From: Escherichia coli | Lineage (GTDB): Bacteria; Pseudomonadota; Gammaproteobacteria; Enterobacterales; Enterobacteriaceae | Reading direction: 5' to 3' (one strand) | DNA length: 64,000 nucleotides | Assembly (NCBI RefSeq): GCF_046105845.1 | Contig: NZ_CP151004.1 | Part shown: in pieces, positions 622 to 45,067 of the stretch | Layout of the letters: every line of letters begins with the position of its first letter | Numbering within the stretch: position 1 is the stretch's first letter | Position numbers and translations under genes: made by a program | Notes under the pieces: generated by a model | The model's database searches: none | Told to the model about the DNA's origin: nothing | What the model saw: the letters and a program-made list of their open reading frames with translations, nothing else

Positions 622-3600
622 ATGAGTAAACTTTTGGATCGCTTTCGCTATTTCAAACAAAAGGGCGAAACCTTTGCCGATGGTCACGGACAGGTGATGC
701 ATAGCAACCGCGACTGGGAGGACAGCTATCGCCAGCGTTGGCAATTCGACAAAATCGTGCGTTCCACCCACGGTGTTAACTGTACAGGCTCCTGTAGCTG
801 GAAAATCTACGTTAAAAATGGTCTGGTGACCTGGGAAATCCAACAGACCGACTACCCGCGCACTCGCCCTGACCTGCCCAATCATGAACCTCGCGGCTGC
901 CCGCGTGGCGCAAGTTACTCCTGGTATCTTTACAGCGCTAACCGCCTGAAATACCCGCTCATTCGCAAACGACTGATTGAACTGTGGCGCGAAGCCCTCA
1001 AACAACACAGCGATCCGGTACTGGCGTGGGCATCGATTATGAACGATCCGCAAAAGTGCCTGAGCTACAAACAAGTGCGTGGGCGCGGCGGGTTTATCCG
1101 CTCCAACTGGCAGGAACTAAACCAGCTGATTGCCGCCGCTAACGTCTGGACCATCAAAACCTACGGCCCGGATCGCGTTGCCGGTTTCTCGCCGATCCCG
1201 GCGATGTCGATGGTTTCTTACGCCGCCGGAACACGTTATCTTTCACTATTAGGTGGCACCTGTTTAAGCTTCTACGACTGGTATTGCGACCTGCCGCCCG
1301 CCTCGCCGATGACCTGGGGCGAGCAAACCGACGTGCCAGAATCTGCCGACTGGTATAACTCCAGCTACATCATCGCCTGGGGGTCTAACGTACCGCAGAC
1401 ACGTACGCCGGACGCCCACTTCTTTACCGAAGTACGCTACAAAGGCACTAAAACCATCGCCATTACCCCTGACTACTCTGAAGTGGCCAAATTGTGCGAC
1501 CAGTGGCTGGCACCAAAACAAGGCACTGATAGCGCCTTGGCGATGGCAATGGGCCATGTGATTTTAAAAGAGTTTCATCTCGATAATCCCAGCGACTACT
1601 TTATCAACTACTGCCGCCGCTACAGCGACATGCCGATGCTGGTAATGCTGGAACCTCGCGACGATGGCAGCTACGTACCCGGGCGCATGATCCGCGCGTC
1701 TGACCTGGTAGATGGACTGGGCGAAAGCAACAATCCGCAGTGGAAAACCGTGGCGGTTAATACCGCAGGTGAACTGGTGGTGCCGAACGGTTCGATTGGT
1801 TTTCGCTGGGGAGAAAAAGGCAAATGGAATCTGGAATCTATTGCCGCCGGTACGGAAACCGAATTGTCATTAACCCTGCTTGGTCAACATGACGCCGTTG
1901 CAGGCGTGGCCTTCCCCTACTTTGGCGGCATTGAAAATCCGCATTTTCGTAGCGTAAAACATGATCCTGTCCTGGTGCGTCAATTACCCGTTAAAAACCT
2001 GACATTAGCCGATGGCAGCACCTGTCCGGTGGTTAGCGTTTATGATTTGGTACTGGCGAATTATGGCCTCGATCGCGGGCTGGAAGATGAAAACAGCGCG
2101 AAAGATTACGCTGAAATCAAACCGTACACCCCAGCCTGGGGTGAGCAAATTACCGGCGTGCCGCGCCAGTATATTGAAACCATCGCCCGTGAATTTGCCG
2201 ATACCGCCCATAAAACGCATGGGCGCTCGATGATTATCCTCGGTGCTGGCGTCAACCATTGGTATCACATGGACATGAACTACCGTGGGATGATCAACAT
2301 GCTGATCTTCTGCGGTTGTGTCGGGCAAAGCGGTGGCGGCTGGGCACACTATGTCGGTCAGGAAAAACTGCGCCCGCAAACCGGCTGGTTGCCACTGGCC
2401 TTTGCGCTCGACTGGAACCGACCACCGCGCCAGATGAACAGCACCTCGTTTTTCTACAATCATTCCAGCCAATGGCGCTATGAAAAAGTCTCTGCTCAGG
2501 AGTTACTTTCACCGATCGCCGATGCCAGTAAGTACAGCGGTCATCTGATTGATTTCAACGTTCGCGCCGAACGTATGGGCTGGCTACCTTCTGCGCCGCA
2601 GCTGGGGCGTAACCCGCTCGGGATTAAAGCTGAAGCCGACAAGGCCGGATTATCCCCCACAGAATTTACCGCCCAGGCGCTGAAATCGGGCGATTTACGC
2701 ATGGCCTGCGAACAACCAGATAGCGGCAGCAATCATCCGCGTAATTTGTTTGTCTGGCGTTCTAACCTGCTTGGCTCCTCCGGCAAAGGCCACGAGTATA
2801 TGCAGAAGTATCTGCTGGGGACCGAAAGCGGGATTCAGGGCGAGGAACTCGGTGCCAGCGACGGGATCAAACCGGAAGAAGTCGAGTGGCAAACTGCGGC
2901 GATTGAAGGCAAGCTCGACCTGCTGGTGACGCTCGACTTCCGTATGTCCAGTACCTGCCTGTTCTCCGATATCGTTCTGCCCACCGCCACCTGGTACGAA
3001 AAAGACGATATGAACACCTCGGATATGCATCCGTTTATTCATCCGCTTTCTGCGGCGGTCGATCCGGCGTGGGAATCACGCAGCGACTGGGAAATCTACA
3101 AAGGTATCGCCAAAGCCTTTTCGCAAGTGTGCGTGGGCCATCTTGGCAAAGAAACCGACGTGGTATTACAACCACTGCTGCATGACTCTCCGGCAGAACT
3201 CTCACAGCCGTGTGAAGTGCTCGACTGGCGCAAAGGCGAATGCGATCTGATTCCAGGTAAAACTGCGCCCAATATTGTGGCGGTGGAACGCGACTACCCT
3301 GCTACCTATGAACGCTTTACCTCGCTCGGGCCATTGATGGACAAACTTGGCAACGGCGGTAAAGGGATTTCGTGGAATACCCAGGATGAAATCGATTTCC
3401 TCGGCAAACTCAACTACACCAAGCGTGAAGGCCCGGCACAGGGGCGTCCGCTGATTGACACCGCCATTGACGCATCAGAAGTGATTCTGGCGCTGGCACC
3501 GGAAACCAACGGTCATGTTGCAGTCAAAGCGTGGCAGGCGCTGGGCGAGATAACCGGACGCGAACATACCCATCTGGCGCTGCACAAAGAGGACGAGAAG

Positions 3601-4362
3601 ATTCGCTTTCGCGATATTCAGGCGCAGCCACGTAAAATCATCTCCAGCCCCACATGGTCTGGTCTGGAAAGCGATCACGTCTCCTACAACGCCGGATATA
3701 CCAACGTTCATGAGTTAATTCCGTGGCGCACGCTGTCGGGACGCCAGCAGCTCTATCAGGATCATCCGTGGATGCGTGCTTTTGGTGAAAGCCTGGTGGC
3801 TTATCGCCCGCCTATCGACACCCGTAGCGTCAGTGAAATGCGCCAGATACCGCCAAACGGCTTCCCGGAAAAAGCACTTAACTTCCTGACGCCGCATCAG
3901 AAATGGGGCATTCACTCAACCTACAGTGAAAACCTGCTAATGCTGACCCTCTCTCGCGGTGGACCGATTGTCTGGATCAGCGAAACCGATGCCCGTGAAC
4001 TGACCATTGTCGATAACGACTGGGTGGAAGTGTTTAACGCCAACGGCGCGCTGACTGCCCGCGCGGTGGTCAGCCAACGTGTACCGCCGGGTATGACCAT
4101 GATGTATCACGCTCAGGAACGCATTATGAATATTCCTGGTTCGGAAGTAACTGGCATGCGCGGCGGCATTCATAACTCGGTCACCCGCGTTTGTCCGAAA
4201 CCAACGCATATGATTGGCGGTTACGCGCAGCTGGCCTGGGGCTTTAATTACTACGGCACCGTCGGCTCGAACCGTGACGAATTCATCATGATCCGCAAGA
4301 TGAAGAACGTTAACTGGCTGGATGATGAAGGTCGCGATCAGGTACAGGAGGCGAAAAAATGA
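622..4362 (+). CDS. narZ: respiratory nitrate reductase 2 (NRZ) alpha subunit, molybdoenzyme
   Basis: Track ORF 499..4362; true start taken at internal ATG (MSKLLDRFRYF...) giving 1246 aa; N-terminal HGVNCTGSCSW Fe-S motif typical of NarG/NarZ; stop overlaps narY start (ATGA). Confidence 0.95.
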   Translation: MSKLLDRFRYFKQKGETFADGHGQVMHSNRDWEDSYRQRWQFDKIVRSTHGVNCTGSCSWKIYVKNGLVTWEIQQTDYPRTRPDLPNHEPRGCPRGASYSWYLYSANRLKYPLIRKRLIELWREALKQHSDPVLAWASIMNDPQKCLSYKQVRGRGGFIRSNWQELNQLIAAANVWTIKTYGPDRVAGFSPIPAMSMVSYAAGTRYLSLLGGTCLSFYDWYCDLPPASPMTWGEQTDVPESADWYNSSYIIAWGSNVPQTRTPDAHFFTEVRYKGTKTIAITPDYSEVAKLCDQWLAPKQGTDSALAMAMGHVILKEFHLDNPSDYFINYCRRYSDMPMLVMLEPRDDGSYVPGRMIRASDLVDGLGESNNPQWKTVAVNTAGELVVPNGSIGFRWGEKGKWNLESIAAGTETELSLTLLGQHDAVAGVAFPYFGGIENPHFRSVKHDPVLVRQLPVKNLTLADGSTCPVVSVYDLVLANYGLDRGLEDENSAKDYAEIKPYTPAWGEQITGVPRQYIETIAREFADTAHKTHGRSMIILGAGVNHWYHMDMNYRGMINMLIFCGCVGQSGGGWAHYVGQEKLRPQTGWLPLAFALDWNRPPRQMNSTSFFYNHSSQWRYEKVSAQELLSPIADASKYSGHLIDFNVRAERMGWLPSAPQLGRNPLGIKAEADKAGLSPTEFTAQALKSGDLRMACEQPDSGSNHPRNLFVWRSNLLGSSGKGHEYMQKYLLGTESGIQGEELGASDGIKPEEVEWQTAAIEGKLDLLVTLDFRMSSTCLFSDIVLPTATWYEKDDMNTSDMHPFIHPLSAAVDPAWESRSDWEIYKGIAKAFSQVCVGHLGKETDVVLQPLLHDSPAELSQPCEVLDWRKGECDLIPGKTAPNIVAVERDYPATYERFTSLGPLMDKLGNGGKGISWNTQDEIDFLGKLNYTKREGPAQGRPLIDTAIDASEVILALAPETNGHVAVKAWQALGEITGREHTHLALHKEDEKIRFRDIQAQPRKIISSPTWSGLESDHVSYNAGYTNVHELIPWRTLSGRQQLYQDHPWMRAFGESLVAYRPPIDTRSVSEMRQIPPNGFPEKALNFLTPHQKWGIHSTYSENLLMLTLSRGGPIVWISETDARELTIVDNDWVEVFNANGALTARAVVSQRVPPGMTMMYHAQERIMNIPGSEVTGMRGGIHNSVTRVCPKPTHMIGGYAQLAWGFNYYGTVGSNRDEFIMIRKMKNVNWLDDEGRDQVQEAKK

Positions 4363-18638: not shown

Positions 18639-19676
18639 TTAATCATCACCCGCCACGCGGATCACCACTTTGCCGAAGTTTTTACCCTTCAGCAGGCCGA
18701 TAAATGTCTGTGGCGCATTCTCTAAACCGTCAGTAATTTCTTCGCGGTAGTGGATTTTATCCTCTTTCACCCATTGCCCCATCTCCTTCTGAAACTCATG
18801 GATGCGGTGACCATAATCCTGAGCGATAATAAATCCTTGCAAGCGAATACGTTTTTTCAGCACTGTAGCCATCAACAGAGGTAAACGATCCGGACCGGGT
18901 GGTAGCTCTGTAGCGTTATAGCTGCTCACTAAGCCACAAACGGGAATGCGCGCAGATGTATTAAGTAAAGGTAGCACTGCATCAAATACCTTACCGCCCA
19001 CGTTTTCATAATAGATATCAATACCTTTTGGGCACGCTTTCGCCAGTTGTTCGGCAAAATCATCCGCATGGTGATCAAGGCATACATCGAAGCCTAACAC
19101 CTCGGTAGCATGGCGGCATTTTTCCGCGCCACCGGCTATCCCCACCACCCTGCAACCTTTAAGTTTGCCGATTTGACCCACCGTCGCCCCCACTGGTCCT
19201 GTCGCCGCAGCTACCACCAGCGTTTCGCCCTCTTTGGGCTGACCGATATCCAGCAGCCCCATATAAGCGGTAAAGCCTGGCATCCCCAGCACACCCAGCG
19301 ACCACGATGGATTTTGCGGATGATCGCCAAGTTTCACCAGTTCATCACCACTGGATATGTCATAGTCCTGCCATCCACTGTAGCCCAGTACCCAGTCGCC
19401 AGGCTGATAATCAGGATGATTCGACTCCACGACACGGCTCACCGTGCCGCCGACCATCACGCCGCCAATATCAACAGGCGGTGAATAAGATGGCTCATCG
19501 CTCATACGTCCACGCATATACGGGTCCAGGGACAAATAAACTGTGCGCAGTAACACCTGTCCTTCACCCGGTGTGGCGACATCATCTTCTTCAAGACGGA
19601 AATTCTCCGGAACCGGTGCGCCATGCGGACGCGAGGCCAGAACCCAACGGCGGTTACGCTGCTTTTGTTGCCCCAT
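18639..19676 (-). CDS. curA: NADPH-dependent curcumin/dihydrocurcumin reductase (MDR-family oxidoreductase)
   Basis: Track ORF 18639..19769; start at internal MGQQKQRNRRWVL... gives 345 aa; zinc-independent MDR fold with nucleotide-binding motif AAATGPVG. Confidence 0.85.
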   Translation of the reverse strand: MGQQKQRNRRWVLASRPHGAPVPENFRLEEDDVATPGEGQVLLRTVYLSLDPYMRGRMSDEPSYSPPVDIGGVMVGGTVSRVVESNHPDYQPGDWVLGYSGWQDYDISSGDELVKLGDHPQNPSWSLGVLGMPGFTAYMGLLDIGQPKEGETLVVAAATGPVGATVGQIGKLKGCRVVGIAGGAEKCRHATEVLGFDVCLDHHADDFAEQLAKACPKGIDIYYENVGGKVFDAVLPLLNTSARIPVCGLVSSYNATELPPGPDRLPLLMATVLKKRIRLQGFIIAQDYGHRIHEFQKEMGQWVKEDKIHYREEITDGLENAPQTFIGLLKGKNFGKVVIRVAGDD

Positions 19677-19856
19677 AATGCTCTCCTGTGCTTTTAGCAT
19701 GAATCCATCAATAGTAGCAGGCTCACGGGATTGGTTTTGTTTGCAGCCGTCACATCCCCTCTGCAACACGCAATAATTTCATCGAGGAATCCGTTGCTTC
19801 GGGCTGTTTTCGATAGTATTGATAACATCATCATCATTATTTTATCGAGGCCAGAC

Positions 19857-20375
19857 ATGTCCATCCGTTTTGCCCGCAAAGCCGACTGTGCTGCCATTGC
19901 GGAAATTTATAACCACGCCGTGTTGTATACGGCGGCTATCTGGAATGACCAAACGGTGGATGCAGATAACCGCATTGCCTGGTTCGAAGCGCGGACTTTA
20001 GCAGGTTATCCGGTGCTGGTGAGTGAAGAAGATGGCGTCGTTACAGGATATGCCTCGTTTGGCGACTGGCGTAGTTTCGATGGTTTTCGCCATACCGTGG
20101 AACATTCGGTTTATGTCCATCCCGATCATCAGGGCAAAGGTCTTGGGCGTAAATTGTTAAGCCGATTGATTGATGAAGCGCGGGATTGCGGGAAGCATGT
20201 CATGGTCGCCGGGATCGAATCGCAAAATCAGGCGTCTTTGCATCTGCACCAGTCGTTGGGATTTGTCGTCACCGCACAAATGCCGCAGGTAGGCACTAAA
20301 TTTGGGCGCTGGCTGGATCTGACATTTATGCAGTTGCAACTCGACGAGCGCACTGAACCGGACGCGATTGGATGA
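19857..20375 (+). CDS. mnaT: GNAT family L-amino-acid N-acyltransferase
   Basis: Track ORF 19731..20375; start at MSIRFARKADC... gives 172 aa; GNAT motifs (QGKGLGRKLL). Confidence 0.85.
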   Translation: MSIRFARKADCAAIAEIYNHAVLYTAAIWNDQTVDADNRIAWFEARTLAGYPVLVSEEDGVVTGYASFGDWRSFDGFRHTVEHSVYVHPDHQGKGLGRKLLSRLIDEARDCGKHVMVAGIESQNQASLHLHQSLGFVVTAQMPQVGTKFGRWLDLTFMQLQLDERTEPDAIG

Positions 20376-20821
20376 ATCAGTCGCTTACCCTTGCTTTTTT
20401 GATTGCCGCCGGAATTGGTCTGGTAGTCCAGAACACGTTGATGGTGCGCATCACCCAGACCTCCTCTACCATTCTCATCGCCATGTTGCTGAACTCTTTG
20501 GTAGGAATTGTGCTGTTCGTTTCTATTTTATGGTTTAAACAAGGCATGGCGGGGTTTGGCGAACTGGTGTCCAGCGTGCGCTGGTGGACACTTATACCTG
20601 GCTTGCTGGGATCGTTTTTTGTCTTCGCCAGTATCAGCGGATATCAGAATGTGGGAGCGGCGACAACTATTGCGGTACTGGTCGCCAGCCAGCTGATTGG
20701 CGGTCTGGTGCTGGATATCTTCCGCAGCCATGGCGTACCACTACGGGCGTTGATCGGCCCAATTTGTGGCGCAATTTTACTTGTGGTTGGTGCCTGGCTG
20801 GTGGCCAGGCGCACATTTTAA
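20372..20821 (+). CDS. ydcZ: inner-membrane protein, DUF606 family
   Basis: 149-aa hydrophobic ORF overlapping the mnaT stop by 4 nt. Confidence 0.8.
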   Translation: MNQSLTLAFLIAAGIGLVVQNTLMVRITQTSSTILIAMLLNSLVGIVLFVSILWFKQGMAGFGELVSSVRWWTLIPGLLGSFFVFASISGYQNVGAATTIAVLVASQLIGGLVLDIFRSHGVPLRALIGPICGAILLVVGAWLVARRTF

Positions 20822-21055
20822 TCAGAGGATGGTGCCACCTTTGGTTAACTGTTCGTGGCGCGCTTCCATATCTTCTTTATGCTTGCGACCGTGATGGGCG
20901 ATCGCTGTGCGCAGACGCTGCTGCTGGGTGTAGCGATCTTCCCGACTTAACTCCGCGTCATCGCTCAGGGCGATTAATAATTCGTTCATATGGGCAATGA
21001 CGCTCTCTTCAATCGCGGCATCCACGCGCGCGATGACTTCATCCAGATGCGACAT
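20822..21055 (-). CDS. ydcY: small uncharacterized protein
   Basis: 77-aa ORF in conserved position; acidic/helical. Confidence 0.7.
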   Translation of the reverse strand: MSHLDEVIARVDAAIEESVIAHMNELLIALSDDAELSREDRYTQQQRLRTAIAHHGRKHKEDMEARHEQLTKGGTIL

Positions 21056-21140
21056 ACTTTCTCCTTAGCCACTTGTGAAATTTATCGATTCATCCAAATG
21101 ATATAAGTCTGCGTGGTGCCGTCAAGCCAGTGAGTAAGAT

Positions 21141-21314
21141 TTAAAACAGTGAAAACAACAGCGCCACCGGGAAACTCATCGGCCATGTTGCCCCCACCAG
21201 AAAGGCGCTTAAGAAACGGATGCGTTTCTTATCGTGAGAAAGAAACCAGGTGATAAGAAATGCGATTGCTGCCATAACCGCATAAAAAACAAGCATGTGT
21301 TGATAGAGAGACAT
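21141..21314 (-). CDS. ortT: small membrane toxin-like protein (orphan GhoT-like toxin OrtT)
   Basis: Track ORF 21141..21389; start at internal MSLYQHMLVFYAVMAAIAFL... gives 57 aa with two predicted TM helices. Confidence 0.7.
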   Translation of the reverse strand: MSLYQHMLVFYAVMAAIAFLITWFLSHDKKRIRFLSAFLVGATWPMSFPVALLFSLF

Positions 21315-21508
21315 GTACGGGCGTCCAGCCAGATGAATAAAACGCGCGCAAATATGCGTCATTTTTTGACGTGCATCAAGTTTTTTCACCAGTTTGAGAA
21401 AAAATCATCAAACAGCAACTTGCCCTTATCCATCTTCAGAATGAGTATTATTGCGGATTTTCTTAACCCGTACTATACACATAGGGGCAATGATAAAAGG
21501 TGGCAAAA

Positions 21509-21604
21509 ATGAATGTTTCCAGTAGAACTGTAGTACTGATAAATGTCTTTGCTGCTGTTGGTTTGTTTACTCTTATCTCTATGAGATTTGGCTGGTTTAT
21601 TTGA
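21509..21604 (+). CDS. yncL: 31-aa single-TM small protein
   Basis: ATG preceded by strong SD (aaggtgg); translation MNVSSRTVVLINVFAAVGLFTLISMRFGWFI*; followed by a long inverted repeat (cgtactgtcagag...ctctgacagtacg). Confidence 0.65.
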   Translation: MNVSSRTVVLINVFAAVGLFTLISMRFGWFI

Positions 21605-21700
21605 TGTAGTGATTTTGCACGCAGCACGTACTGTCAGAGAAATCAGTGCTCTGACAGTACGCAAGATCTTCTCATACTCTTACGATCTGCAATATTATCC

Positions 21701-23125
21701 TTAATGTTTAACCATGACGTGGCGGACGACGGTGTAATCCTCCAGCCCATAAAGTGACATATCCTTGCCGTAACCAGAAAGTTTCTGCCCACCGTGCGGC
21801 ATTTCACTTACCAGCATGAAATGGGTATTGACCCAGGTACAACCATATTGCAGCCGCGCGCTGACGCGATGCGCCCTGCCCACATCTTTCGTCCATACCG
21901 AGGATGCAAGTCCGTACTGGCTGTCATTTGCCCAGTTTACCACCTGTTCTTCATTGTCGAAGAGCGTAACACTCACTACCGGACCAAATACCTCTTTTTG
22001 CACGATGGCATCGTCCTGTAATGCGCCAGCCAGTAGCGTCGGCGCATAGTAATAGCCATTACCCTTGCGCTTTTCACCGCCAGTGATCACTTTGATGTGC
22101 CCTGTCGCTTTCGCCTCTTCTACTGCCTTGCTGACGCGTTCGAGATGCGCCAGCGAGCTTAAAGGTCCAAGCTCCGTAGACTCGTCATCCGGCGCACCAG
22201 ATTTTAACGTTGCCACCGCAGCACCCAGTTTTTCCACCAGCGTATCGTAAATGCCTTTTTGCGCGTAGATCCGACAAGCCGCAGTACAATCCTGTCCGGC
22301 ATTGTAATAGCCAAATGTACGTACACCTTCGACCACTGCTTCAATATCCGCATCATCAAAAACAATCACTGGCGCTTTGCCACCAAGTTCCATATGAGTA
22401 CGCTTAATGGAGGGCGCGGTATGGCTGATGATATGCTCGCCGGTGGCGATAGAGCCCGTCAGCGACACCATCCGCACTTTGGGATGACCGGTCAGCGGAT
22501 CGCCCACCGTTTTGCCTCTGCCAAACAGTACGTTAATCACGCCTGCCGGGAAGATATCTTTCGCCAGCTCTGCCAACTTCAACGCGGTCAGCGGGGTAAT
22601 TTCTGATGGTTTAAGCACTACACAGTTCCCTGCCGCCAGCGCCGGAGCCAGTTTCCACGCGGCCATCATCAGCGGATAATTCCACGGTGCGATCGAAGCC
22701 ACGACCCCCAACGGATCGCGACGGATCATCGAAGTATGACCTTCAAGATATTCACCTGCCGCCAGACCATTCAGACAGCGCGCCGCACCAGCGAAAAAGC
22801 GAAAAACATCGACAATCGCCGGGATTTCATCATTGAACGCACTATGCAGCGGTTTGCCACAATTACGGGACTCCAGTTCGGCGAAAACCTGACCATTTTC
22901 TTCGATAACATCAGCCAGTTTCAGCAGACATTCCGCACGCACTTTCGGCGTGGTTTGCCCCCATTCGGCAAATGCTGCATCTGCCGCGCGCACAGCAGCA
23001 TCGACCTGCTCTGCGGATGCCTCGGCAATCTCCAGTAAAACGTCCCCCGTTGCCGGATTATAGACAGGCTGTTTTTCCCCTTCGCCGCTAACCAGTTCTC
23101 CGTTAATCAGTAACTTATGTTGCAT
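21701..23125 (-). CDS. patD: gamma-aminobutyraldehyde dehydrogenase (aldehyde dehydrogenase family)
   Basis: 474-aa ORF with ALDH catalytic Cys/Glu motifs; follows ydcSTUV in the same orientation. Confidence 0.9.
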
Positions 23126-23146
23126 AGCATATTCCTGTATCAGTGG

Positions 23147-23941
23147 TTATTGACCATTGTCGCCTTCGCGGGTTAGCCACCAGGCCCCCAGGATCGGCAA
23201 GGTTGTTACCAACATAACCAGCAGTGCCACCACGTTGGTTACCGGTACATCACGCGGTCGCCCAAGCTGATTGAGCAACCACAACGGTAACGTTCGTTCA
23301 TGACCTGCCGTAAAGGTCGTCACGATGATTTCATCGAACGACAAGGCAAACGCCAGCATTCCTCCTGCCAGTAGCGCCGAACTGAGATTCGGCAACACTA
23401 CGTAGCGGAAGGTTTGCCAGCCATTGGCCCCAAGATCCATTGACGCCTCAACCAGACTCCACGAGGTGCGGCGAAAACGGGCGATGACATTGTTAAACAC
23501 CACCACTACGCAAAAAGTCGCATGACCGACCACGATGGTGAAAAATCCCGGCTCCAGATTGATGGTTTTAAAGGCGGTTAATAACGCCAGACCAGTGACA
23601 ATGCCCGGCAGCGCAATGGGCAGCAGCAGTAACAGCGAAATGGCGTTTTTGCCGAAAAAGTCTCGTCGCCACAGCGCGGCAGCGGCCAGCGTCCCTAACA
23701 CCAGCGCCATTAATGTCGCCAGCGCCGCCACTTTAAGTGACAGTGTCACGGCATCAAGAATATCACTACGCTGTGCTGCCACGCTAAACCAGCGCAGCGT
23801 CAGGCCCTGCGGTGGAAAACTAAACGCCGCATCTTCAGTGTTAAACGCATAGGCGGCGATAATCAGGATGGGAAAATGTAGGAAAACCACGCCGCCCCAG
23901 GCCGCCAGTTTGAGGAAAAACGGTGCGCGTTCAGAGTGCAT
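23147..23941 (-). CDS. ydcV: ABC transporter permease (polyamine-type)
   Basis: 264-aa ORF, 6-TM permease with EAA-like loop; overlaps ydcU. Confidence 0.85.
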
Positions 23942-24872
23942 CGAACGCTCCCAGACGTTTCACGAACGCCAGGTACAGTGCGATGAGAACAATCGGCACC
24001 AGGGTGAATGCCGCCGCCATCGGCATATTGCCAATCGCTCCCTGCTGGGAATAAACCATATTGCCGATAAAATATCCTGGAGGGCCAACCAGCTGCGGAA
24101 CAATAAAATCGCCCAGTGTGAGTGAAAAGGTAAAGATAGAGCCAGCGGCAATACCAGGGATTGCCAGCGGCAGCACCACATAGCGAAAGGTTTGCCGTGG
24201 ACGCGCGCCAAGATCAGCCGACGCCTGCAACAATGACGGCGGCAAACGCTCAAGCGCCGCCTGCACGGGCAGGATCATGAACGGCAGCCAGATATAGAGA
24301 AACACCAGAAAGCGCCCCAGCCCGGAAGTTGACAGCGTATTGCCGCCCACCGCAGGTAATGTAAGGAACGCAGTCAGCAGTGGTTCCAGCCCAAGATGTT
24401 GTAAAAACCACTGAGCCACGCCATCTTTTGCCAGCAATAACGTCCAGGCATAGGCTTTAACAATGTAGCTCGCCCACATCGGCAACATTACCGCAATATA
24501 AAAAAACGCTTTCATTTTCCCGCTGGTATAGCGCGCCATATACCACGCCATTGGAAAAGCCAGAATGGCGCTGGCGATAGTGACTGCCACAGCCATAGTC
24601 AGCGTGCGGAGAATGATGTCGTAATTCGCCGGATTAAACAGCGCACGGATATTCGCCAGCGTCAGTTCCGGCGTTACCGACATGGTGAAATCGTCAAAGG
24701 TATAAAATCCCTGCCATAACAGTGTCAGCAGCGAGCCGAAATAGACAATGCCAAACCACATTAGCGGGCCAAGCAGCAGTAAAAACAGCCCCAGCCCCGG
24801 ATTACGCCAGAAGAAACCGGACACCTTACCCAGACCTGGACGTGAAGGTGATTGCAATACATTCATCGCCAT
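23931..24872 (-). CDS. ydcU: ABC transporter permease (polyamine-type)
   Basis: 313-aa permease ORF directly downstream of ydcT. Confidence 0.85.
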
Positions 24873-44041: not shown

Positions 44042-44329
44042 TACCGTTGTCTCTCTTCCAGGTTTACTCCTGATAGAAAGTCATCGGCACTTGACGGTAA
44101 TTTCTTACGACCAAAAACCTCTTTGCGTCACATTTTTACAACAATTATGGCAGAGAAGATTAATGCCATTGGAATGAAGAGAGTAACGAATGATTAAACT
44201 GGCTAAACCGAATGACGAAAAATTCTGGAAAACAGCACGCAATTTCGTCAGGTGATTATTTTCGTCCCTAAGGAAACCACATAGGATGCTCACGGGTGCC
44301 TGAGACTTTCTGTTTTCAGGCTAACCGGG

Positions 44330-44381
44330 AATCAGAAAGACGAAGGCCCCGACCGATATTTCTATCAACCGAGGCCAACGA

Positions 44382-44400
<19 letters not shown>
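44330..44400 (-). ncRNA. sokB: predicted Sok-type antisense RNA against the mokB/hokB leader (coordinates approximate)
   Basis: Inferred from hok/sok locus architecture: the antisense regulator overlaps the mok translation-initiation region (mokB ATG at 44382). Not verified at nucleotide level. Confidence 0.3.
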
Positions 44401-44589
<189 letters not shown>

Positions 44590-44653
44590 GGGCAAGCGCG
44601 GGGATTTTCCCCGCGCATCTGACTAGCGGATTCATTTTCTCATGGCACCCCTT

Positions 44654-44833
44654 TTACACTTCAGTAGTGCATGTTTTTTTCGATGCACTAATAGAACCAT
44701 CATTACAGACAAATTTGCCGCCTGCCGTACAGTGTGAGATCCCCCCTTTAGAACCAGAACAGGGTTTGCGCCCGGCATCGGCATAAAAGGAAACAAGCGC
44801 TCCCATAACCAAGATAAGTGCCAGTTTTTTCAT
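44654..44833 (-). CDS. ydcA: small secreted Cys-rich protein
   Basis: 59-aa [62 protein letters not shown]; signal peptide plus 4 Cys; SD (ggaggt) upstream. Below the track length cut-off, so hand-called. Confidence 0.65.
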
Positions 44834-45003
44834 ATAACCTCCATGGTTTATCGAATCTTATGTTCGATTTGAACGTTATACGCTGGTTTATTTTGATACC
44901 GTTGATGAGATCAAAGATCGGGTGAATTGATTAAAGATAAGCCAGATGGACGTATGGACCAGGATTATGGTTTTATTTGTCATACAAATAAATATAATAG
45001 GCG

Positions 45004-45067
45004 CTTCCGATGTAGGCCCGTATTCTTCGCCTGTACCACGGGTCGGTTTTAGTACAGGCGTTTTCTT
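45004..45067 (+). ncRNA. rydC: Hfq-dependent small RNA RydC
   Basis: Sequence cttccgatgtaggcccgtattcttcgcctgtaccacgggtcggttttagtacaggcgttttctt matches the RydC sRNA as I recall it, including the pseudoknot-forming 5' region and a 3' terminator hairpin (cgcctgtac...gtacaggcg + U-run); lies between ydcA and cybB. Confidence 0.75.

Follow-up and report, generated by a model that had tools for sequence, protein, structure and literature searches.

The closest described relative of the first gene treated here is the E. coli K-12 protein OrtT (YdcX), an antitoxin-less toxin that exerts its toxicity at the protein level, causing cell lysis, lowered ATP levels and raised persistence (Islam, Benedik and Wood 2015, PMC4344625). 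According to the same study, OrtT is neutralised neither by YdcY, GhoS or the flanking RNA nor by any clone of a genomic library, and it is induced by four triggers of the stringent response, namely TMP, SHX, mupirocin and RelA. It is 63% identical to GhoT, the toxin of the type V system GhoT/GhoS, and reveals a similar membrane-damaging action (PMC4344625).

The second gene, yncL, has also been described in the literature. Translation of YncL in K-12 and its increase in minimal medium and upon heat shock are attributed to Hemm et al. (2008/2010 and 2010, respectively), as cited in PMC12542507. When YncL was made in exponential phase, the membrane was depolarised and the nucleoid condensed, as with YohP, and the sensitivity to magainin-2 increased (PMC12542507). 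In Salmonella, the yncL transcript corresponds to STnc1110, which is sigma-S-dependent; a translational lacZ fusion was expressed, and a Flag-tagged YncL was not detected (PMC5437024). YncL was further reported to be cleaved by RseP in vivo, though the cleavage was not reproduced in vitro (PMC10470546), and interactome datasets list the sRNAs RprA and KilS as partners of the yncL mRNA. YohP/STnc1330 resembles YncL/STnc1110 in having about 30 aa, one transmembrane helix and a short monocistronic sigma-S-dependent transcript (PMC12542507, PMC5437024), as well as in the depolarisation and nucleoid condensation that follow overproduction (PMC12542507). The functional data on both OrtT and YncL come from K-12 and Salmonella, mostly from plasmid overexpression, and the literature cited here reports no loss-of-function phenotype for yncL.

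The stretch of E. coli DNA analysed here (64,000 nucleotides, referred to as the window) carries both genes side by side, in the following arrangement.

20822-21055, minus strand: ydcY (DUF2526), downstream neighbour of ortT; assigned by Pfam PF10735 and RefSeq.
21141-21314, minus strand: ortT (ydcX, K-12 b1445), encoding a 57-aa inner-membrane orphan toxin of the GhoT/OrtT family with two transmembrane helices.
21351-21379, minus strand: putative sigma-70-type promoter of ortT, with -35 TTGATG (21379-21374), a 17-nt spacer and -10 CATATT (21356-21351).
21451-21479, plus strand: putative promoter of yncL, with -35 TTGCGG (21451-21456), a 17-nt spacer, C at -13 (21473) and -10 TATACA (21474-21479).
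21497-21503, plus strand: Shine-Dalgarno sequence of yncL, AAGGTGG, 5 nt before the ATG, read from the sequence.
21509-21604, plus strand: yncL (K-12 b4598), encoding a 31-aa stress-response membrane peptide with a single transmembrane helix; assigned by NF000537 and RefSeq.
21627-21661, no strand assigned: hairpin with a perfect stem of 13 bp and a loop of 9 nt, flanked by the convergent genes yncL and patD, whose stops are at 21604 and 21701, respectively.
21701-23125, minus strand: patD (gamma-aminobutyraldehyde dehydrogenase), convergent neighbour of yncL; assigned by open reading frame and RefSeq.

The gene order ydcZ-ydcY-ortT-yncL-patD is common to the window and K-12 MG1655, and RefSeq gives these very names at the locus, with ortT labelled as "orphan toxin OrtT" and yncL as "stress response membrane protein YncL". 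When the RefSeq locus was mapped to the window, ortT came to lie at 21141-21314 (minus), yncL at 21509-21604 (plus) and patD at 21701-23125 (minus). By megablast, the region was matched in 5,415 of 5,426 complete E. coli genomes, with an identity of at least 95% in every matching record, and both small genes are annotated by RefSeq/PGAP in every E. coli record shown. The original prediction had placed two small membrane-peptide genes beside patD, and all of its features are indeed present where it had located them. We are highly confident that the region represents the core-genome E. coli locus ydcY-ortT<>yncL-patD with two independently transcribed divergent genes, together with the mechanism proposed below for both peptides and the hairpin. 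As for the gene identities, no contradicting evidence was found: both genes are already known, annotated and experimentally studied. Since every testable defining feature of both families was found, this is the correct identification of two known genes.

OrtT of the window is 100% identical to K-12 OrtT (b1445) over 57 aa, and it matches Pfam PF10753 (Toxin_GhoT_OrtT) over positions 1-55 of the 55-position profile with 96.9 bits (E = 8e-28), the cut-off being 22.1. The Kyte-Doolittle profile displays two hydrophobic segments, roughly residues 6-26 and 34-57, on either side of the basic loop SHDKKRIR, in agreement with the published transmembrane residues 6-26 and 34-54 (PMC4344625). Profile match, K-12 identity and hydropathy together bear out the earlier assignment as a 57-aa OrtT-like protein with two transmembrane helices from a family of membrane-damaging orphan toxins. 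Compared with K-12, no difference was seen at all, the likeness extending to ydcY downstream, yncL upstream, the two-helix layout and F38. Residue 38, F in the window, is F, V, A or I across genera, all of them hydrophobic.

An 82-aa form of the ortT frame, extended to a GTG at 21389, was rejected. Across species, indels that are not multiples of three occur just upstream of the ATG, and the extension is therefore not coding. Many of the database homologues of OrtT (P0001-P0120) are 63-97 aa long instead of 57, the gene callers having chosen upstream GTG or TTG starts; judging from the same indels, these over-long entries are artefacts of start choice.

The orphan status of ortT is also seen in its surroundings, as its neighbours are the DUF2526 gene ydcY and yncL, and no GhoS homologue is adjacent. 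OrtT resembles GhoT in Pfam family, size and predicted fold, whereas the locus differs from ghoT/ghoS in its neighbours, and GhoS fails to neutralise the toxin, as noted above. Type I toxin-antitoxin systems such as hokB/sokB share with the locus the small hydrophobic membrane-depolarising peptide on a short transcript. In contrast to these systems, the ortT/yncL locus has no match to an antisense or overlapping RNA: when 19000-24000 was searched against Rfam at E <= 1, neither an antisense RNA nor an STnc1110 family came up, the sole match being mir-1923, which is below threshold (21.4 bits with E = 0.68, where the gathering score is 94). The flanking RNA tested in K-12 also did not act against OrtT (PMC4344625), and the intergenic distances are short.

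Elsewhere in the window, two Rfam matches passed the gathering score, namely the sok antitoxin RNA (RF01794) at 44294-44445 on the plus strand with 109.7 bits, and the sRNA RydC (RF00505) at 45004-45067 on the plus strand with 90.5 bits. The matches at 44294-45067 presumably represent the known hokB/sokB-rydC neighbourhood of E. coli. In that case, a true type I toxin-antitoxin locus lies in the window at a distance of about 23 kb from ortT.

The second gene had been described in the original prediction as a 31-aa "yncL-like" hydrophobic frame; it is yncL itself, as evidenced by the RefSeq annotation, by a match to the NCBIfam equivalog NF000537 (72.5 bits, cut-off 35, positions 1-30 of 30) and by the identity of 30 of its 31 residues with K-12 b4598. 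A Pfam profile search of the window proteins gave no match for YncL, and the precomputed database annotation of YncL homologues does include PF28073:YncL. Besides the sequence, the window and K-12 share the position between ortT and patD, the Shine-Dalgarno sequence and the downstream hairpin. Hydropathy analysis gave two segments in OrtT, as described above, and one in YncL, a single stretch at about residues 7-25 (Kyte-Doolittle, GRAVY 1.39).

The only difference from K-12 YncL is the conservative change at residue 13 (codon 21545-21547), which is V in the window and F in K-12. Other E. coli have L and several Citrobacter have I at this residue. In 27 aligned sequences of 31 codons, position 13 is I, L or V; all variants are hydrophobic and lie within the transmembrane helix.

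A frame of 31 codons alone means little, because the 3-kb stretch around the locus contains 60 open reading frames of at least 20 aa; the coding support for yncL comes from the profile match and from the substitution pattern across species given below. The near-consensus Shine-Dalgarno sequence noted earlier could be confirmed as AAGGTGG at 21497-21503, and all but one of 28 species, the window included, keep GGTGG at 4-6 nt from the start codon, the exception being the isolate RIT691. The mechanical list of open reading frames had proposed a 34-aa form of yncL from GTG 21500, which was rejected. This GTG lies inside the Shine-Dalgarno sequence, and 1-nt indels in the spacer put it out of frame with yncL in 6 of 28 species; the start is therefore ATG 21509. 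The earlier remark that such small proteins fall below the usual length limits for open reading frames is right for the classical cut-offs, but the two genes are not missed nowadays, being annotated by RefSeq/PGAP.

One database protein, P0122 (82 aa), consists of YncL fused to a read-through tail of 51 aa that runs over the hairpin towards patD. Its tail fits the window sequence from 21509 onward if the TGA stop becomes a Leu codon. A longer hypothetical protein with yncL, "group_9935 (yncL)", was reported to show a suggestive association with conjugation efficiency in 13 isolates (PMC8954029), and the P0122 variant may be the source of this entry.

The two genes are divergent and 194 bp apart. 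An alignment of 18 species revealed conserved blocks on both sides of this region: ATTGCGG and CCGTACTATAC, nearly invariant, on the yncL side, and AATATGC and CATCAAG on the ortT side. The ortT promoter blocks are kept also in genera without yncL. From sequence and conservation, we placed a putative promoter in front of each gene (see above). Sigma-S prefers a C at -13, and the putative yncL promoter, which has this base, appears to be of the sigma-S type. Such an assignment fits the RpoS dependence of the lacZ fusion to Salmonella yncL (STnc1110) (PMC5437024). A consensus promoter scan found neither of the two; the -10 of the yncL promoter has A as its last base, and the ortT promoter, with 8 of 12 consensus positions, stays under the threshold.

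Upstream of ortT, the conserved block 21338-21385 contains two small palindromes and is kept even in genera without yncL. The first palindrome, ACGCGCGCAAATATGCGT, is followed by T6 on the plus strand and looks terminator-like according to the scan, yet no plus-strand gene lies upstream of it; the second is TTGA-N6-TCAA (21366-21379). Overlapping the putative ortT promoter, this block could be a candidate binding site for a regulator.

Past the yncL stop codon by 22 nt begins an inverted repeat whose arms (21627-21639 and 21649-21661) have 13 nt each, are 100% complementary and form 7 G-C pairs. Of the "long perfect inverted repeat" announced in the original prediction, "perfect" is accurate with 13 of 13 positions complementary, and "long" is generous. 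On the plus strand the sequence folds with -21.6 kcal/mol (z = -5.0; none of 200 shuffles was as stable), and on the minus strand with -22.5 kcal/mol (z = -4.4). Nearly all species have a strong hairpin after yncL, with a stem sequence that differs among genera. In the alignment of 18 sequences, both sides were changed in 7 of 14 pairs, paired cells amounted to 82.9% compared with 32-54% for controls with slid partners, and the observed covariation score was reached by no shuffle.

We consider it likely that this hairpin is the shared 3'-end structure of the convergent yncL and patD transcripts. No T-run was found 3' of the stem on either strand, the sequence continuing with CAAGATCTTCTC on the plus strand and with TGCTGCGTGCAA on the minus strand, and the structure is therefore a 3'-end hairpin and not a canonical intrinsic (Rho-independent) terminator. 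A terminator scan did not report 21627-21661, where the stable stem-loop is present and the U-tract absent; its two weak sites were located inside ortT and in the ortT upstream block. Since an RNA-seq analysis also listed patD-yncL among the overlapping convergent pairs ("excludons") (PMC12288877), the hairpin may be a leaky terminator or just a barrier to exonucleases.

The hairpin might instead belong to patD, as terminator or stabiliser of the ydcSTUV-patD operon that yncL merely adjoins. It folds equally well on the patD strand, with the values given above, and genera without yncL still have a strong GC-rich hairpin of unrelated sequence after patD (L056, L057, L058, L061). However, Citrobacter loci without patD within 2.5 kb (e.g., L013, L014, L026, L081) still have a hairpin after yncL, and RIT691 (L064), which has no patD orthologue adjacent, carries a textbook bidirectional terminator after yncL at the same place. 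An exclusive attachment to patD thus appears rather unlikely to us, though it is the strongest of the alternatives, and the two roles are mutually compatible in any case. A 3'-end structure shared by both transcripts is the reading that we follow here.

For the comparison among species, ortT loci were fetched from 80 species, with one genome per species, via OrtT alignment, and were then searched for YncL. A yncL frame directly upstream of and divergent from ortT was found in 27 other species, the carriers being Escherichia, Citrobacter, Salmonella, Intestinirhabdus and the Enterobacteriaceae isolate RIT691. Another 52 of the 80 loci have ortT without an adjacent yncL, among them those of Enterobacter, Kosakonia, Lelliottia, Leclercia, Phytobacter, Pantoea, Cedecea and Buttiauxella, and in 36 of these 52 loci patD still lies within the fetched flank. 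In the short spacers between patD and ortT (133-263 nt; L044, L049, L056-L058, L061) there is no remnant of yncL, and the conserved block proximal to ortT is retained. Among 1.84 billion representative proteins, which were searched exhaustively, there were only 9 relatives of YncL at E <= 1e-3, all of them at least 63% identical, which means that the family is narrow. YncL differs in this confinement to a small set of Enterobacteriaceae from comparators of the YohP type.

The neighbourhood of yncL varies on its outer sides. Only the Escherichia loci, 5 of the 27 that bear yncL, have ydcY next to ortT. Loci L083-L086, which have a divergent yncL, carry an alpha/beta hydrolase gene instead of ydcY beside ortT, and a gene for a 40-aa small protein (precomputed Pfam PF28118, KPN01023) at about 3559-3682 on the plus strand, about 1 kb from yncL. 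In Dryocola boscaweniae (L080), the spacer between patD and ortT contains, at 249-347, a 32-aa hydrophobic frame (MKIGYLFPIAIIVSAVVLLAWFIIGGYAMPGA) in the position and orientation of yncL, without similarity to it; this may be an unrelated small membrane protein in the same slot or a chance frame.

On its inner side, YncL stands divergent beside a GhoT/OrtT gene in all 28 loci and also in two divergent lineages (63-70% identity) with different outer neighbours. This constancy raises the question of whether ortT<>yncL forms a two-peptide module for membrane depolarisation, in which YncL would tune OrtT as antagonist, partner or synergist. Every YncL homologue found adjoins a GhoT/OrtT gene even where the outer neighbours are others, and each of the two peptides, when produced, lowers membrane potential or proton-motive force. 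Judging from the UTR-F primer, the "UTR" construct of the OrtT study holds codons 1-8 of yncL only (PMC4344625), so that full-length YncL was not co-expressed with OrtT there. Nevertheless, ortT occurs without an adjacent yncL in most of the species sampled, as given above, which means that YncL is not required for tolerating OrtT, and the genomic-library screen yielded no antitoxin (PMC4344625). With a gap of only 194 bp between the genes, their co-retention may reflect no more than a small target for rearrangement in a well-syntenic family, and the regulation of the two genes appears different, with sigma-S for yncL and with ppGpp and predicted sigma-E/sigma-H promoters for ortT. We regard a joint module as improbable and keep to two divergent genes that are transcribed independently; if the module were true, OrtT would not be truly "orphan".

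Frame conservation in relatives, the check that the original prediction had named for yncL, was examined in the same loci, and the frame proved to be conserved. The ATG is kept in all 27 other species, with 31 codons in 26 of them and 30 in RIT691. Substitutions were counted in 27 distinct DNA sequences of 31 codons, from the window and 26 species. The variable columns at codon positions 1, 2 and 3 number 9, 6 and 27 of 31, respectively, and the pooled pN/pS is 0.166. In comparison with the window, dS reaches 1.0-1.6 and dN stays at or below 0.18, with ATG and stop kept. The pattern by codon position and the pN/pS value argue for a translated and selected peptide and, on these counts, the yncL frame is under purifying selection across species.

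That the 31 codons are instead a chance frame within a non-coding small RNA, with the RNA and not the peptide conserved, could draw on the first cataloguing of Salmonella STnc1110 as non-coding and the undetected 3xFlag-tagged YncL (both PMC5437024), on the pairing of the yncL mRNA with RprA and KilS and on the abundance of short frames by chance, but this is effectively refuted by the substitution pattern, with frame length, start and stop kept at the dS values just given, and it is further opposed by the Shine-Dalgarno sequence at a fixed distance, the NF000537 equivalog match, the lack of a matching Rfam family, the expressed translational lacZ fusion of Salmonella (PMC5437024) and the detection of the protein in E. 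coli (Hemm et al., as cited in PMC12542507). The peptide is clearly under selection, and a dual function of the RNA is conceivable beside it.

For a mechanism, we combined gene identity, frame selection, the conservation of the Shine-Dalgarno sequence and promoter blocks, and the covariation of the hairpin, all computed here, with toxicity, depolarisation and regulation as given in the literature, and we infer where exactly the promoters lie and what the hairpin does. [quoted passage not shown] From a putative sigma-S-type promoter, yncL would be transcribed as a short, sRNA-sized, monocistronic mRNA, whose translation from the strong AGGTG Shine-Dalgarno sequence would give the 31-aa peptide with a single transmembrane helix. 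YncL would be expected to build up under stress or in stationary phase and, when overproduced, to cause a partial depolarisation, which would trigger nucleoid condensation as well as the phage-shock response. For the two convergent transcripts, those of yncL and of ydcSTUV-patD, the 3' ends are most likely set or stabilised by the 13-bp hairpin.

As a discovery, the locus offers little, since both genes are part of the reference annotation, with curated HMMs and experimental study behind them, though two genes of fewer than 60 codons were correctly recognised from the raw sequence by the original prediction. The new points are modest. The distribution of yncL is narrower than that of ortT, and yncL is always adjacent to ortT. 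The neighbour constructs of the OrtT study (PMC4344625) do not include the co-expression of full-length YncL and OrtT. Finally, the yncL promoter, Shine-Dalgarno sequence, coding sequence and hairpin make up a compact conserved module between patD and ortT.
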